This document shows positions 12,257 to 26,052 of a DNA stretch of 34,977 bases, piece after piece. Below the pieces are notes generated by a model. The model had not been told where the DNA came from and ran no database searches. It was given only the letters and a program-made list of their open reading frames with translations. How positions within the stretch are numbered: the first letter of the stretch is position 1; every line of letters begins with the position of its first letter. The DNA lies in assembly GCA_963827755.1 (NCBI GenBank), contig CAWHCQ010000018.1, positions 1 through 34,977 of the forward strand. Direction: 5' to 3'. This DNA is from an uncultured Gammaproteobacteria bacterium (GTDB lineage: Bacteria > Pseudomonadota > Gammaproteobacteria > UBA9214). The position numbers and the translations under genes were made by a program.

Positions 12257-12339
12257 GCCACGGAAGCACACGGAAATACACGGAAGAAAACCTGAATAAT
12301 GAATGGTTATTCTGTGATTATGAGGGGTGTTTCCGTGGC
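12257..12339. repeat. Triple-CACGGAA motif with a partial inverted partner
   Basis: GCCACGGAAGCACACGGAAATACACGGAAGAAAA (12257-12290) is the exact reverse complement of 26018-26051; TTTCCGTGGC at ~12330. Confidence 0.8.
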
Positions 12340-12380
12340 GATAGTCTTTTTATTCAGACGACACATCCCAACTGCGCGCC

Positions 12381-12531
12381 ATTCACCTCCCACCTCTCAC
12401 TTCTCACTTCTCACTCCTCACTTCTCACTTCTCACCTCTCACTTCTCACCTCTCACTTCTCACTTCTCACTTCTCACTTCTCACCTCTCACTTCTCACCT
12501 CTCACTTCTCTCACTTCTCTCACTTTCCACC
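12381..12531. repeat. Heptamer tandem repeat (TCTCACY), ~20 units
   Basis: 16 in-phase units at 12395-12506 plus degenerate flanking units. Confidence 0.95.
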
Positions 12532-12553
12532 CGATCTCCGGTATATTCAGACC

Positions 12554-12883
12554 ATGCAAAACCCCCTGCAACTCGTGCTGTGCACCGTCCCGGACAGGGA
12601 CAGCGCGGAGCGAATTGCAGAGACGCTGGTTGCAGAGCAACTGGCGGCCTGTATCAATATCATTCCGGGGATAAGCTCGGTCTATCGCTGGAAAGGAAAG
12701 CTGGAGAAAGACGAGGAACTGCTGCTGTTCATCAAGACCAGCCAGGGCGCGTATCACGCGCTGGAACAACGGATTCGCGCCCTGCATCCCTACGAACTTC
12801 CCGAAATCATTGCAGTCCCAATACAGACCGGACAGGAAGACTATACAAGATGGATAGAAAGCAACATTACCACGCCTTCATGA
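12554..12883 (+). CDS. cutA: Divalent-cation tolerance protein CutA
   Basis: [33 protein letters not shown] overlap with dsbD. Confidence 0.93.
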
Positions 12884-15177
12884 CTTCCTGGAAAATCCTC
12901 GCCGCAGTGCTGGCCTTGCTCGCGCTGCCGGCCCATGCGCTGGATTCGATTGGCGCTGCGGAACAGGAACTGCTGGAGCCGAACAAGGCATTTGTATTCA
13001 ATGCCACGGTCCGGGATGCGACAACCCTGCAGGCCAGCTGGAAAATCGCTGACGGTTATTACATGTACCGCGAGCGCATCCGTTTCCGCAGCGACACGCC
13101 GGGTATTGAACTCGGCAAGCCGGTGCTGCCTGCCGGCAAAATCAAGAACGATGAATTCTTCGGTGAGATCGCCGTATTCCGCAACCAGGTAACGGCCACC
13201 ATCCCGTACACCCGCTCGGCTGACGGCCCGGACACCCTGCAACTCAGCGCTGTATCACAGGGCTGTGCCGATATCGGGGTGTGCTACCCCCCGCATACGC
13301 AACTGGCACAACTGGAACTGCCGGCAACACTCGCAGCCGCTGCAACGCCCGCTTCCAGCCTGCAGTCGCTGAATACGCTGGCCGATAAGCTGGGCCTGGA
13401 CAGCGGCGCAGACGAATTTCTTGACCCGGACATCGCCTTTCAGGCCAGTGTCATTGAAACCCGGCCCGGCCTGCTGCTGGTGCGCTGGGACATTGCCGAT
13501 GGCTATTATCTCTACCGGGACAAGCTCAAGGTGCAGCTGGTCGAAGGCCCGGGTGTCACCCTGGGTGCTGTCGAGCTGCCCCCCGGCAAGATCAAGCATG
13601 ATGAATTCTTCGGCGACGTGCAGGTCTTTCACCACGAGGTAGAGGCCCGGGTACCGGTGCAGGGCACAACCGGCGCCGGTGAAATCACCCTGCAAATTGC
13701 CCACCAGGGCTGTGCCGAGGCCGGCATCTGCTACCCGCCCATGAAGAAGCTGGTCAACGTGGCCCTCACTGCGCCCGGCGCCGGCACAGTCCCCGTGGAC
13801 AGCGTCACACCCGGCAAGAAACGGCCGGGCGTTGCGGTGACCACCACCCGCCAGGATGATGTCGTGCAGGTCCTGCAGGAAAGCAGCCTGACATGGGTCG
13901 TGCTGTTCTTTTTCGGCGCCGGTATTTTGCTTGCCTTCACCGCCTGCATGTACCCGATGATTCCCATCATCTCCAGCATCATTGTCGGACAGGGCGAGAA
14001 CATCACGGCCGCCAGGGCCTTCGGCCTGACGCTCATCTATGTCGAGGCGCTTGCACTCACCTATGCGGTGATCGGGCTGATCTCCGCAAATATCGGCGCC
14101 GGTGTACAGGCCTTTTTCCAGAACCCGTGGATACTGGGTTTCTTTGCGCTGGTGTTTGTTGCACTGGCCTTGTCCATGTTCGGTTTTTTCCATATGCAGC
14201 TGCCTGCTTCCTGGCAGTCGAAGCTGCACAACACCAGTCACAAAATGAAAGGCGGCACCCTGCTGGGGGTCGTCGTCATGGGCGTGCTGTCGGCACTGAT
14301 TGTCGGCCCCTGTGCCGGGCCGGTCCTGATCGGCGCGCTCATCTACACCAGCCAGAGCAGCGATTATCTCACCGGGGCACTGGCCATGTTTGCGCTCGGC
14401 AACGGCATGGGCCTGCCCCTGCTGGTGCTCGCGACCACCGAGGGCAAGCTGCTGCCCAAAGCCGGCGGCTGGATGGACAGCGTCAAGGCGGTATTCGGCG
14501 TCATCCTGCTGGGTGTCGCGATACTGATGCTGGAACGCATCCTGCCGGGACCGGTCACCCTGGCACTGTGGGCGCTGCTGCTGATCATCCCGGCAATCTA
14601 CATGCGCGCCCTGGATCCATTACCCGAGGGCGTATCCGGCTGGCGGCGGCTCTGGAAGGGCCTGGGTGTTGCCATGATCATCTACGGCATCATCCTCATC
14701 ATCGGCGCCGCAACCGGCGCGCGTGATCCCTTCAACCCGCTGCGCAACCTGGGCGGCACCCTGACCACGACCGCCGGCGGCAGCTATAATTCGCAACACC
14801 TGCAATTCCAGCGCATCAAAAGCACGGACGACTTCAGTGCCGCCCTGGCCGAGAGCAGCGCCCGGGGCAAACCGGTCATGCTGGATTTCTACGCGGACTG
14901 GTGCACCTATTGCCTGAAGATGGAGGACTACACCTTCTCCGATCCGGCCGTGCAACAGGCACTTGCCAACGTCACCCTGTTACAGGCGGATGTCACCGCC
15001 AACGACGCCACGGACCTGGCCTTGCTGAATCACTTCGGCTTGTTTGCCCCGCCGGCGATCCTGTTTTTCGATGCGCAAGGAGAAGAACGGCGTGACCAGC
15101 GGCTGGTCGGGTTTATGGATGCCGGGGATTTCCTGGAATACCTGGCGGGGGCGCTGGGTGGAGCTAGCAGGAAGTGA
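12880..15177 (+). CDS. dsbD: Protein-disulfide reductase DsbD with duplicated N-terminal (alpha) domain
   Basis: Signal peptide, two QGCA.{3}.CYPP domains, TM domain with two Cys (FTACMYP, GPCAGP), C-terminal thioredoxin domain [10 protein letters not shown]. Confidence 0.93.
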
Positions 15178-15573
15178 AGTGAGAAGTGAAACCAAAAGCA
15201 TGAAGTGACCACGAAAGTCACACGGAAAAGTTCAGTCAAATGAAAAAACTACCTGTAGGAGCGGATCTAATCCGCGAATGTCGCAGCACGAACAAACGCC
15301 CATCGCAGCTTGAGAAGCGCTTCTACAGGTATGTTTATGGCGTATCAGCAGCTCCGTTCACCCCGGATTCCGGCTCCGATAGATCCTGCATCCGGGCTGC
15401 GGGATTAGTGGCCACGAAATCACACGGAAAATTCGTCAAAGTAAAAAACCCCTGTAGGAGCGGATCTAATCCGCGATGACTGCGCTCATCGACGAAACCC
15501 CATCGCGGATCTAGCATCCGCTCCTACGGCTGACTTCTCACTTCTCACTCTCACTTCTCACTTCTATTTCTCA
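15170..15573. repeat. Composite intergenic repeat region: heptamers, degenerate CACGGAA motifs and GTAG REPs
   Basis: AGTGAGA heptamers at the left end and TCTCACT at the right end. ~70-bp duplication (15205-15277 vs 15408-15476). GTAGGAGCGGATCTAATCCGCGA at 15255 and 15454. Confidence 0.8.
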
Positions 15574-24509: not shown

Positions 24510-24590
24510 GATTTTATTTTTCCGTGTCCTTCCGTGGATTCCGTGGCCATTAGTTTTTTACATTTTTATTCTTCCGTGTGCTTCCGTGGC
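24510..24590. repeat. CACGGAA-motif copy identical to 23688-23730, plus a partial second copy
   Basis: GATTTTATTTTTCCGTGTCCTTCCGTGGATTCCGTGGCCATTA (24510-24552); CTTCCGTGTGCTTCCGTGGC (24571-24590). Confidence 0.9.
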
Positions 24591-24621
24591 AAAAAAATCT
24601 TCTAAGATGCCCCACCCCACC

Positions 24622-25730
24622 TCACTCATTATAATCAAACGTCCGAAACCCCTCCCGCTTGCACAACTCATCCCGCTCCGCAATCTTCAGATCCTCCCTG
24701 ACCATCTCCGCCACCATCTCATCCAGGGTAATCTCCGGCACCCACCCCAGCTTCTCCCTGGCCTTGCTCGAATCACCCAGCAGCGTCTCCACCTCGGTCG
24801 GCCGGAAATAGCGCGGATCGACTTCCACCCGCACCTTGCCGCTATCCTCCTCGATACCCTTCTCTTCAATCCCTTCGCCTTCCCAGCGCAGCGTAATACC
24901 CACTTCCTTGCAGGCCGCATTGACAAAGTCACGCACCGAGTACTGCACGCCCGTGGATATACAGAAATCCTCCGGCTCATCCTGCTGCAGCATCAGCCAC
25001 TGCATCTTCACGTAATCCTTCGCATGCCCCCAGTCACGCTTGGAATCCAGGTTGCCGAGATAGAGCTTGTCCTGCAGCCCCAGCTTGATACGGGCCACTG
25101 CACGGGTAATCTTTCGTGTAACAAAGGTCTCGCCACGCACCGGTGATTCATGGTTGAACAAAATCCCGTTACAGGCATAGATGCCATAGGCCTCGCGGTA
25201 ATTGACGCAGATCCAGTAGGAATACATCTTGGCAACCGCATAAGGACTGCGCGGATAGAAAGGCGTCGTCTCCTTTTGCGGAGTCTCCTGGACCTTGCCG
25301 AACAACTCACTGGTGGATGCCTGGTAGAACTTTGTCTTCTTCTCCAGACCCAGAATCCGGATCGCCTCGAGCAAGCCGCAGCGTCCCCAGCGCATCGCAG
25401 TTTGCCGTGTATTCCGGCGTCTCGAAGGAGACCGCCACGTGACTCTGCGCCGCCAGGTTATAGATCTCATCCGGCTGCACCTCCTGAATAATCCGGATCA
25501 GGTTGGTCGAATCGGTCAGGTCGCCATAATGCAAAAAGAAGTGGACATCCTCCTCGTGCTGGTCGTGGTACAAATGATCAATACGATCGGTATTAAACGA
25601 TGACGCCCGGCGCTTGATGCCATGAACGATGTAGCCCTTGCTCAAGCAGCAGCGCCGCAAGATAGGCCCCGTCCTGCCCGGTAACCCCGGTTATCAGCGC
25701 CACCTTCCTGTTTTCTGTTTGATTACTCAT
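24622..25730 (-). CDS. gmd: GDP-mannose 4,6-dehydratase (frameshifts ~25650, ~25380)
   Basis: [74 protein letters not shown]. Confidence 0.95.
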
Positions 25731-25816
25731 ATAATCTTTTCCCGTTAGTACTAATAATTAAGCCTCGTCATCGCGAGCATCTCACCCCGCTACGCGGTCA
25801 CAAATCAACGAAAAAC

Positions 25817-25872
25817 TGTAGGGTCGAATTCATTCGACCGATCTCGATTGGTCGAATGAATTCGACCCTACA
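25817..25872. repeat. REPIN: perfect 23-bp inverted GTAG REP pair
   Basis: TGTAGGGTCGAATTCATTCGACC-N10-GGTCGAATGAATTCGACCCTACA. Confidence 0.88.
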
Positions 25873-25963
25873 AGTATAAGCTGTTGCCCAGATTGCCTCC
25901 AAAAATCAACATTTCAGGGTTAAGTTCTTCAAGAGCGACGTGCGACCATCGACGCAATAGATC

Positions 25964-26052
25964 TTATTTTTCCGTGTCCTTCCGTGGATTCCGTGGCCAT
26001 AACTATCTTGTAAATTTTTTTCTTCCGTGTATTTCCGTGTGCTTCCGTGGCC
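25964..26052. repeat. Two tandem CACGGAA-motif copies (reverse orientation)
   Basis: TTATTTTTCCGTGTCCTTCCGTGGATTCCGTGGCCAT (25964-26000) and TTTTCTTCCGTGTATTTCCGTGTGCTTCCGTGGCC (26018-26052). Confidence 0.88.

Follow-up and report, generated by a model that had tools for sequence, protein, structure and literature searches.

Short intergenic repeats that are accompanied by a cognate gene are known from the repetitive extragenic palindromic (REP) sequences, their inverted doublets (REPINs) and the REP-associated tyrosine transposases (RAYTs), for which the accessible text of Bertels and Rainey (2011, PMC3116915) and of Di Nocera et al. (2013, PMC3733652) has served as our reference. Another described case is that of the contiguous arrays of the heptamer TAACTGA, which are reported from Beggiatoaceae, Cyanobacteria and Bacteroidetes in the accessible part of the study of MacGregor (2015, PMC4679880). 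In our study, a stretch of 34,977 nucleotides from an uncultured gammaproteobacterium of the UBA9214 lineage (contig CAWHCQ010000018.1, positions 1 to 34,977; called the window below) was found to carry a dispersed family of arms, each built from three phased CACGGAA heptamers, and among them a gene for a small nuclease of the GxxExxY family (PF13366). We consider it moderately probable that these arms belong to a REPIN/RAYT-like system of inverted-repeat elements which accompanies GxxExxY genes and which has a different enzyme and a different repeat design.

The heptamer CACGGAA has 39 exact matches on the two strands of the window against 4.34 expected, about a nine-fold excess that was reached in 0 of 100 dinucleotide-preserving shuffles. 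Thirty-four of them are grouped into 14 clusters, nine full three-unit arms and five partial or decayed ones (Table 1), all of which fall between open reading frames (ORFs) with Pfam or NCBIfam matches; the other five (5762, 9763, 9997, 17477 and 32346) are isolated singletons at chance level. Each triple forms one arm of about 40 bp with an outer TT-R-R-C end, three phased heptamers and an A-rich inner end. The distance from unit to unit is 9-10 bp, and as the mixture of 9- and 10-nt spacing breaks any reading frame, a coding repeat is ruled out. Two subtypes recur, type A with the form (T)AATGGC-CACGGAA-KC-CACGGAA-GRA-CACGGAA-AAATAA and type B with the form GC-CACGGAA-GCA-CACGGAA-ATA-CACGGAA-GAAAA. 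A generic detector, which accepts any 7-mer in three copies at 8-11 bp spacing, gave 16 matches in the window, nine of the CACGGAA family and seven of background in 35 kb.

An earlier reading of the window (the original prediction) had described a dispersed, intergenic family without the GTAG tag, with the same copies and the same partial or degenerate ones, two subtypes, 9-10 bp spacing and a place at the gene junctions of 19.0-26.1 kb. All of this was borne out, including the exact reverse complementarity of two type B copies (34 of 34 bases; first and last arms of Table 1). It had also held that a single copy is not a hairpin, which is correct for the single arm, but arms usually come as inverted doublets that can fold into a long hairpin. 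Two such inverted pairs are intact in the window (21998/22133 and 23144/23698) and two are decayed (12259/12331 and 19071/19348).

The family is not particular to one genome, and in this respect the earlier interpretation, otherwise sound on the family and on its GxxExxY link, had to be widened. A scan of 185,579 genomes, one genome per species, for CACGGAA-N2-3-CACGGAA-N2-3-CACGGAA gave at least 127 stretches, where about one would be due to chance by our own estimate, which assumes equal base frequencies (596 Gb x 2 strands x 4 spacings / 4^21). The analysis of loci covers 126 loci among the matches listed (labels L001 on), and the figures below are per listed locus. The matches listed belong to Gamma- and Betaproteobacteria, Desulfobacterota, Verrucomicrobiota, Planctomycetota, Kiritimatiellia, Lentisphaeria, Bacteroidota, Acidobacteriota, Gemmatimonadota, Nitrospirota, among other groups. 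Cultured carriers include Thiohalobacter, Wenzhouxiangella, Oceanisphaera, Marinobacter nauticus and Desulfamplus, and in M. nauticus the type A arm is present in the complete genome CP085245.1 (L125). The arm at 21992..22031 is the same in 40 of 40 bases as an arm in L042, another gammaproteobacterial genome. Spacers and flanks vary freely among the listed loci and the heptamers are conserved; of 161 exact arms, 90% have a C immediately before the first unit, and upstream of this C stand two purines and a T-rich pair, which gives the outer end TT-R-R-C. Pfam analysis of 150 ORFs beside arms (L001-L079) showed unrelated housekeeping families with no shared neighbour (type II secretion system protein F, MgsA, RseP, lysS/prfB, SHMT, PFK, GatB, MutL and ABC transporters among them), and two of the ORFs are PDDEXK_3. 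Such unrelated neighbours argue that the arms are not a regulon and are not tied to exopolysaccharide (EPS) loci. In the plasmid collection, a 45-bp arm gave two weak matches only, both within an Arthrobacter transporter gene.

Some of the listed loci have another make-up. Uniform tandem arrays at L029, L074, L087 (Actinomadura, Streptomyces), L115 and L021, that of L029 within a GlnE-like ORF, are probably unrelated to the arms. Expanded unit arrays were seen at L103 (1-130), L116, L054 and L001, and four-unit arms in some loci; the L103 array, at a contig end of a Lentisphaeria metagenome-assembled genome, has at least 13 CACGGAA-RA units with a period of 9. Arms of the bacterial type stand also on contigs binned as Halobacteria and Methanosarcinaceae (L111, L057), by binning contamination or by transfer into archaea.

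Arms, counted with up to two mismatches in 21 positions, occur at least twice in 70 of the 126 listed loci. For adjacent arms within 1.5 kb, leaving out L024 and L043 (duplicates) and L103 (long array at a contig end), 65 pairs are convergent, 18 tandem and 6 divergent. The gap between convergent arms is 3-637 bp, mostly below 150 bp. Since the arms are mostly convergent, the usual unit is hairpin-capable and REPIN-like. The window doublet at 21985-22170 has a computed DNA fold of -87.8 kcal/mol (z = -11), and five doublets tested as single-stranded DNA hairpins gave z values of -6.5 to -12.4. Spacer identity inside doublets is 62% against 34% for randomly paired arms, and both spacers are alike in 13 of 65 doublets only; due to the mismatching spacers, many stems would be three 7-bp helices with small internal loops between them. 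The heptamer sequence is thus conserved rather than the pairing, which speaks for sequence-specific recognition. The 65 doublets showed no target-site duplication; direct repeats of 3-9 bp at offsets 0-8 were never above shuffled partners, and only 2-bp matches at offset 1 were in excess, with 6 doublets where 0.9 would be expected. The interiors of 13 longer gene-less doublets contain no convincing ORF, and the interiors of gene-less doublets are unrelated to that of the gene-bearing cassette.

The GxxExxY gene of the window sits between the mutually inverted arms 23698(-) and 23144(+). A phmmer search on all six-frame ORFs identified a GxxExxY homologue in five of the 126 listed loci, each beside an arm, at a distance of about 20 bp or less in L060, L069, L106 and L123 and of about 90-130 bp in L079. 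In L123 (Desulfamplus) the arm ends 1 nt before the ATG and the inverted arm begins 2 nt after the TAA, and the same order of arm, gene and inverted arm is present in L079, whose gene came from the six-frame search. In L069 (Gallionella) an arm of three CACGAAA units abuts the ATG and a CACGGAA doublet follows the stop; in L106 an arm lies just 5' of the gene, and in L060 the arms on either side of the gene point away from it. Flanking arms are thus seen around the gene in the window, L123 and L079, as also in L135 and L133. The two L069 sites (2570-2605 and 3001-3158) differ in that all three units of the former are CACGAAA, with spacers (AA, GG) as in the CACGGAA doublet, a concerted change of three units; CACGAAA occurs also in the partial window arms at 15210 and 15413.

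The link was further examined from the protein side, in a way that is blind to the repeat, by tblastn of three GxxExxY proteins (from the window, Bacteroides and Desulfamplus) against 72,556 plasmid records. All three queries gave the same 8 records, in which 9 gene copies were inspected. Phased heptamer triples were found within 250 bp of six of these nine genes, with 17 triples in about 4.7 kb near the genes, while the rest of these loci, about 25 kb, has 6; one of the six far triples is an inverted arm in an over-extended Sphingomonas coding sequence and three others belong to the Prevotella family as additional copies. The heptamer type varies with the gene. It is CACAGAG in Bacteroides finegoldii and Bernardetia, CGCGAAG in Sphingomonas and ACAAATC / AAAGATT in Prevotella, and of the two Gemmatirosa paralogues on one replicon copy 1 has a CGCGGAT doublet and copy 2 has CGCAGAG doublets on both sides. 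Five of these match C-R-C-R-R-A-D, due to which they look like variants of one ancestral site. In the 24.8-kb B. finegoldii record the generic detector gave eight triples, all of the arm class (six CACAGAG and two of another type), and the record holds three CACAGAG doublets, a gene-flanking pair and one doublet of the second type, so that REPIN-like doublets come to about one per 5 kb in this fragment. The second-type doublet (22235-22302 of L136) is convergent, has a CAGATTA/CGGATTA register and lies between pgm and thrC.

Traces of the arms were also found in annotated proteins. Among 120 close homologues, nine have at least 127 residues, and three of the four longest (137-155 residues: P0084, P0097 and P0112) start with peptides translated from an arm, such as GHGNTRNYTEE. 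In 150 representatives at 50% identity, the N- or C-terminal extensions often read MNADERR, MNTDEHG, SAVSATSAV or IRVHP. Tripeptide periodicity was present in 26 of 163 extensions (mean 13.3 and maximum 22 in 500 shuffles), and its three-fold form in 4 against 0.15 expected. The spurious peptides had been proposed earlier as handles for database searches, and they do work as such. The hinted GxxExxY tie is real and general from both sides, five listed loci from the repeat and six of nine plasmid genes from the protein, although the gene lies beside the arms in these five listed loci only. The suggestion that the arms are sites for a dedicated protein fits the change of heptamer with GxxExxY lineage.

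One filled and one empty site could be compared. In Sphingomonas parapaucimobilis, fabD and its stop are followed by TCTTTTTT, a CGCGAAG-type arm abutting the ATG, the GxxExxY gene, an inverted arm, 25 nt with a ribosome-binding site, and fabG. In S. paeninsulae, fabD and fabG are 36 nt apart without an arm. This arm-free site argues that the arms and the gene arrived together, in one insertion of about 0.48 kb. Other cassettes stand likewise within conserved gene strings (radA-GxxExxY and ade-GxxExxY-manC). In L123, L069 and L131 the arm runs right up to the start codon and has GGA or GAGGA 8-12 nt before the ATG, and from this position it may also supply the ribosome-binding site.

The protein itself is a clear member of its family (PF13366 E = 4.4e-40 and 137.1 bits with a cut-off of 22; TIGR04256 137.6 bits with a cut-off of 35). 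Catalytic E33, D72, E82 and K84 are all present in it, and in an alignment of 80 sequences E33, Y36 and K84 are invariant and G30, D72 and E82 reach at least 90% conservation. Such a pattern corresponds to the GxxExxY helix and a D...ExK core, and hence to a predicted, intact PD-(D/E)XK catalytic set. GxxExxY proteins have about 120 residues. The AlphaFold2 model of the window protein (predicted local distance difference test 95.2) has as its nearest solved folds Cas4 SSO0001 (E = 1.4e-4, template modelling score 0.56), the Hjc Holliday-junction resolvases and lambda exonuclease, whereas a sequence search of the PDB gave no match at E <=1, and tblastn against the phage collection gave none either. 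The family is very large, with 14,117 clusters of 50% identity at E <=1e-3 and 3,726 at E <=1e-10; the accessible part of a superfamily survey gives the function of PDDEXK_3 as 'Unknown' and its history as 'multiple transfers, mixed clades' (PMC3424549). Tandem two-domain fusions of about 250-390 residues make up 26 of the 150 best representatives (including P0121, P0124 and P0127) and suggest that the single-domain form may work at least as a dimer. The closest relatives lie mostly on contigs of about 0.5-3 kb, as is expected from a repeated element that breaks assemblies.

From these sequences we infer a possible course of DNA binding, cleavage and mobility. The full element would be a cassette that measures about 0.45-0.6 kb and has the order arm-gene-arm or a gene between arm doublets, and it would insert between host genes and even within operons. 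The gene-less convergent doublets, tandem arms and solo arms would be its non-autonomous or decayed copies, far outnumbering the gene. The nuclease would recognise the phased heptamers, with several protomers occupying each arm, either along a single helix face or on an extruded hairpin or cruciform, and would cut at or near the arms. Such cutting would let the copies be excised, copied or recombined, as RAYTs do with REPs and REPINs; the spread may run by excision with repair, by copying at replication or by recombination between arms. Moreover, we tentatively put forward that GxxExxY genes and their arms form an unrecognised, ancient class of mobile or domesticated element in most Gram-negative phyla, with a heptamer-reading PD-(D/E)XK nuclease as its sole protein, and that it has seeded genomes with its REPIN-like doublets. 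There is a fair chance that the system merits the name of a new element class. The repeat was not described in the full-text literature searched (GxxExxY, PDDEXK_3, PF13366, the heptamer, and nuclease with heptamer), with subscription journals and database family comments lying outside that search.

Several observations weigh against the reading of the arms as a GxxExxY-associated element. The link between arm and nuclease rests on proximity and co-variation, target-site duplications were not found, and a nuclease alone cannot integrate DNA. At the filled and empty sites, the two Sphingomonas species are only about 72% identical and the junctions are not readable to the base. Three of the nine plasmid-borne genes are without a heptamer triple; the Fusobacteria gene has direct repeats of about 50 bp instead, the Treponema gene has a single inverted CACGGATTCG unit on each side and the Persicobacter gene has weak TAAATCC repeats only. 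With the gene in 5 of 126 listed loci, most arms lie far from any GxxExxY gene in the visible DNA, and the repeats hence behave as a largely gene-less population, like REPINs in comparison to RAYT genes. The geometry varies from arm-gene-arm in the window, L123 and L079 to the outward arms of L060. Protein identity tracks the heptamer type only loosely; the window protein shares 50% identity with that of Fusobacteria, whose gene is without heptamer arms, and 44-45% with the CACGGAA-flanked proteins of L123 and L069. Finally, vapBC, gmd and fcl in the window are arm-bounded as well, and the arms are thus not exclusive to the nuclease gene.

The last point is shared by the alternative that survives best, namely that the arms are structural or regulatory REP-like elements of the host (for the protection of mRNA 3' ends, termination or a nucleoid protein) and that GxxExxY lands beside them or carries a copy. 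Most arms lie between ordinary housekeeping genes with no nuclease gene near, and the doublet hairpins are very stable, both of which would suit such a role. One factor with the same heptamer specificity across about eight phyla is, however, hard to name, and the heptamer varies with the GxxExxY lineage, even to two types for two paralogues on one replicon. The empty Sphingomonas site is without an arm, so the arms there came with the gene. Further, scans of 18.8-26.3 kb showed no excess over shuffles of terminator-like sites (9 against 7.6) or of promoter-like sites (4 against 5.2). We consider this alternative unlikely for the arms in general; for the gene-less copies it is possible.

An RNA-level role was considered next, in which inverted arms form a long stem, the ORF is processed out of the operon transcript or translated within it, and the purine-rich units act as ribosome-binding sites. 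The 23S rRNA intervening sequences, which are cut by RNase III, offer an analogy. The arms that abut start codons with a GGA or GAGGA upstream, the cassettes within operons (fabD-fabG) and after radA, and the 7 of 10 window arms oriented in the sense of the minus-strand genes would all agree with it. The helices are, however, kept by sequence and not by compensatory change, with spacers that often mismatch, and the gene-less doublets and tandem arms hold nothing to process. Both orientations of the arms relative to neighbouring genes occur and no Rfam match was obtained, all of which makes an RNA bracket quite improbable.

A slimmer chance is given to a site-specific recombinase, integron-like or other, for which the arms would be the recombination sites and by which the cassettes of the EPS locus would be shuffled. 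The four successive cassettes at 22.1-26.1 kb are indeed each delimited by arms, gmd lies between direct copies of a tandem composite of a type B and a type A arm, and the GC content is lower there (0.44-0.52 at 23-27 kb against 0.55-0.62). Against this, the 27 window ORFs scanned contain no integrase or recombinase domain, an IntI-type integrase included, by which integron cassettes were also rejected; arms elsewhere stand between unrelated core genes and not in arrays beside an integrase, and they appear to lack the attC layout. Operator arrays of a transcription factor, such as an OmpR/PhoB-type regulator or the PEP-CTERM regulator PrsR of the window, are hardly credible, although a set of three direct heptamers spaced by about a helical turn is reminiscent of response-regulator sites and prsK and prsR are present, because the arms stand at 3' ends, in both orientations, beside unrelated genes and in many phyla. 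The PEP-CTERM box itself, in the accessible text of its description a 17-nt motif ending in TTTACA with a sigma-54 -24/-12 site upstream of PEP-CTERM genes (PMC1569441), was rejected as a candidate, the published motif being unlike the arm and the arms not being confined to Proteobacteria.

The genes of the window are heptosyltransferases, glnE, a pilus/secretion ATPase, groES-groEL and dsbD, followed by an exosortase/EPS locus on the minus strand with prsR, prsK, prsT-like tetratricopeptide repeat (TPR) genes, an fcl-like epimerase, gmd, a wecA-like transferase, XrtD, a glycosyltransferase and a UDP-sugar dehydrogenase. Neither a tRNA nor a tmRNA was detected in the window. In the direction of the minus strand the features follow each other as B-A, gmd, B'-A, vapBC, A, GxxExxY, inverted A and fcl, and thereafter A, 109 bp, inverted A, prsT, A, a decayed inverted arm and prsK. 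The direct B+A composites on both sides of gmd recur in the L111 genome, whose copy has 85% identity over 78 bp to that of the window. The vapBC pair (23802-24376; PIN-domain toxin and AbrB-type antitoxin) forms a cassette of its own between two arms of the same orientation. It is our conjecture that the window arms may have served as joints for the exchange of cassettes in this variable polysaccharide region. Four genes, namely glnE, the prsT-like TPR gene, the fcl-like epimerase and gmd (4048-6973, 19392-21889, 22200-23202 and 24622-25730), are split into overlapping or abutting ORFs that match consecutive parts of one Pfam or NCBIfam profile. This suggests assembly frameshift errors or decay to pseudogenes, and the exact sequences of the window arms could be affected as well.

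Other repeats are present in the same window. A separate palindromic repeat of the GTAG type, GTAGGAGC, has 11 copies against 0.61 expected, lying at 2706-2911, 3998-4005, 9311-9407, 15255-15527, 19149-19156 and also 25817-25875. At 15205-15270 and 15408-15470 it forms a composite repeat with a partial CACGGAA arm, and in L042 GTAG palindromes alternate with arms. Repeats of period 11 (TGTTCGCSNNN) occur within or beside the GTAG palindromes (3958-3991, 9338-9393 and 19117-19137), and the start of the window (1-547) is a tandem array of 4.4 copies of a 123-bp unit that contains GTAG-like palindromes. Contiguous TCACTTC arrays of period 7, with up to 18 copies, stand at 12383-12510 and 15533-15576, with short runs near 15165-15195 and 22170-22195, and every one of them is close to a CACGGAA arm.

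Table 1. Arms of the CACGGAA family and the GxxExxY gene in the window. Arm positions are those used in the counts of full and partial or decayed arms.
Feature	Span	Strand	Arm position	Remarks
Type B arm, three units (core 12259-12285)	12252..12294	+	12259, full	12257-12290 is the reverse complement of 26018-26051
Decayed inverted partner of the 12259 arm	12305..12345	-	12331, partial or decayed	Exact unit 12331-12337 and one CACAGAA
Partial arm, CACGAAA + CACGGAA	15205..15232	+	15221, partial or decayed	Followed by a GTAG-type REP
Partial arm, CACGAAA + CACGGAA	15408..15434	+	15423, partial or decayed	Followed by a GTAG-type REP; paralogous to 15205
Degenerate arm, exact units 19071 and 19094	19066..19110	+	19071/19094, partial or decayed	Decayed partner of the 19348 arm
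Type A arm	19341..19380	-	19348, full	Follows the TPR (PrsT-like) stop codon directly
Type A arm, left half of intact gene-less doublet	21992..22031	+	21998, full	
Type A arm, right half of the same doublet	22125..22164	-	22133, full	Cores 109 bp apart
Type A arm between fcl-like start and GxxExxY stop	23138..23177	+	23144, full	Inverted relative to 23698
GxxExxY gene, PD-(D/E)XK nuclease, PF13366 / TIGR04256, proposed cognate protein	23192..23572	-		
Type A arm	23690..23729	-	23698, full	126 bp upstream of the GxxExxY gene, in the sense of the gene
Type A arm upstream of vapBC	24512..24551	-	24520, full	A half of B+A tandem composite
Type B arm, two units	24562..24594	-	24572, partial or decayed	B half of this composite, which lies downstream of gmd
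Type A arm upstream of gmd	25962..26001	-	25970, full	A half of second B+A composite
Type B arm, three units	26018..26055	-	26023, full	B half of second B+A composite

If the wider reading of GxxExxY genes and their arms as an ancient element class is true, it would give a function to the very large PF13366 family of 'unknown' proteins, and it would also explain a frequent origin of spurious peptides in genome annotation. The tie to a defined DNA element provides GxxExxY with a testable substrate. The recurrent false N- and C-terminal extensions and the short spurious ORFs of annotations are explained as translations of arms. Peptides of the arm type seem to be common in genome annotations. 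Moreover, the arms probably break short-read assemblies, and they mark joints in variable polysaccharide loci like that of the window.

In comparison with known systems, no named class was recovered, and none had been recognised in the original prediction. Rfam gave no match in the whole window at the gathering score, and its E-value mode gave sub-threshold matches at chance level only (for example, CsrC with 21.7 bits against 61). Free-standing PD-(D/E)XK homing endonucleases and Hjc resemble the GxxExxY protein as small PD-(D/E)XK nucleases, Hjc being among the nearest folds of the window protein as modelled. If a doublet were extruded as a cruciform, the product would be a four-way junction. 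Homing endonucleases, however, use one conserved site and spread by homology, whereas the GxxExxY cassettes stand at many unrelated sites. Miniature inverted-repeat transposable elements (MITEs) offer the likeness of a gene-bearing element with inverted ends and many short gene-less derivatives. The arms differ from them in the lack of a target-site duplication and of a transposase, DDE or other (the scanned ORFs of the window contain no transposase domain), and in doublet interiors that are unrelated to that of the cassette; a MITE or terminal-inverted-repeat transposon was rejected on the 65 doublets without target-site duplication.

The TAACTGA arrays are the nearest published parallel to an intergenic heptamer that crosses phyla. 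As far as the accessible text of PMC4679880 goes, they are like the arms in that one identical heptamer is directly repeated between the genes of distant phyla, in many cases shortly before a start codon, with no known mechanism. They have, however, a period of 7 without spacers and one indirect repeat among 170 sets, and no nuclease gene is proposed for them in that text (PMC4679880). By this description the TCACTTC arrays of the window (12383-12510) are of the TAACTGA kind and the CACGGAA arms are not; with their 9-10 bp spacing, the arms were rejected as members of the contiguous heptamer arrays, short tandemly repeated repetitive sequences included.

REPs differ from species to species, and the CACGGAA heptamer itself is common to several phyla. 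The REP unit, as described in the accessible text of the two reference papers, is a small palindrome with a GTAG or CGTC tag, whereas the arm consists of three direct heptamers with a TTRRC outer end, and the RAYT is an HUH (IS200/IS605-like) tyrosine transposase whereas the arm-flanked gene encodes a minimal PD-(D/E)XK nuclease. With no internal palindrome, no GTAG or CGTC tag and no HUH transposase, the arms are not members of the REP/REPIN-RAYT class, though their doublets and their place beside the gene do fit it. As in that class so far as the same text describes it, they are short, multi-copy intergenic repeats that usually stand as hairpin-capable inverted doublets, with one cognate gene which is itself repeat-flanked, without target-site duplication, and with a repeat sequence that differs among the lineages of the cognate gene. 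If our reading is true, the arms and the GxxExxY gene would add a second system of repeat and cognate enzyme beside REP/RAYT, built on another nuclease fold.

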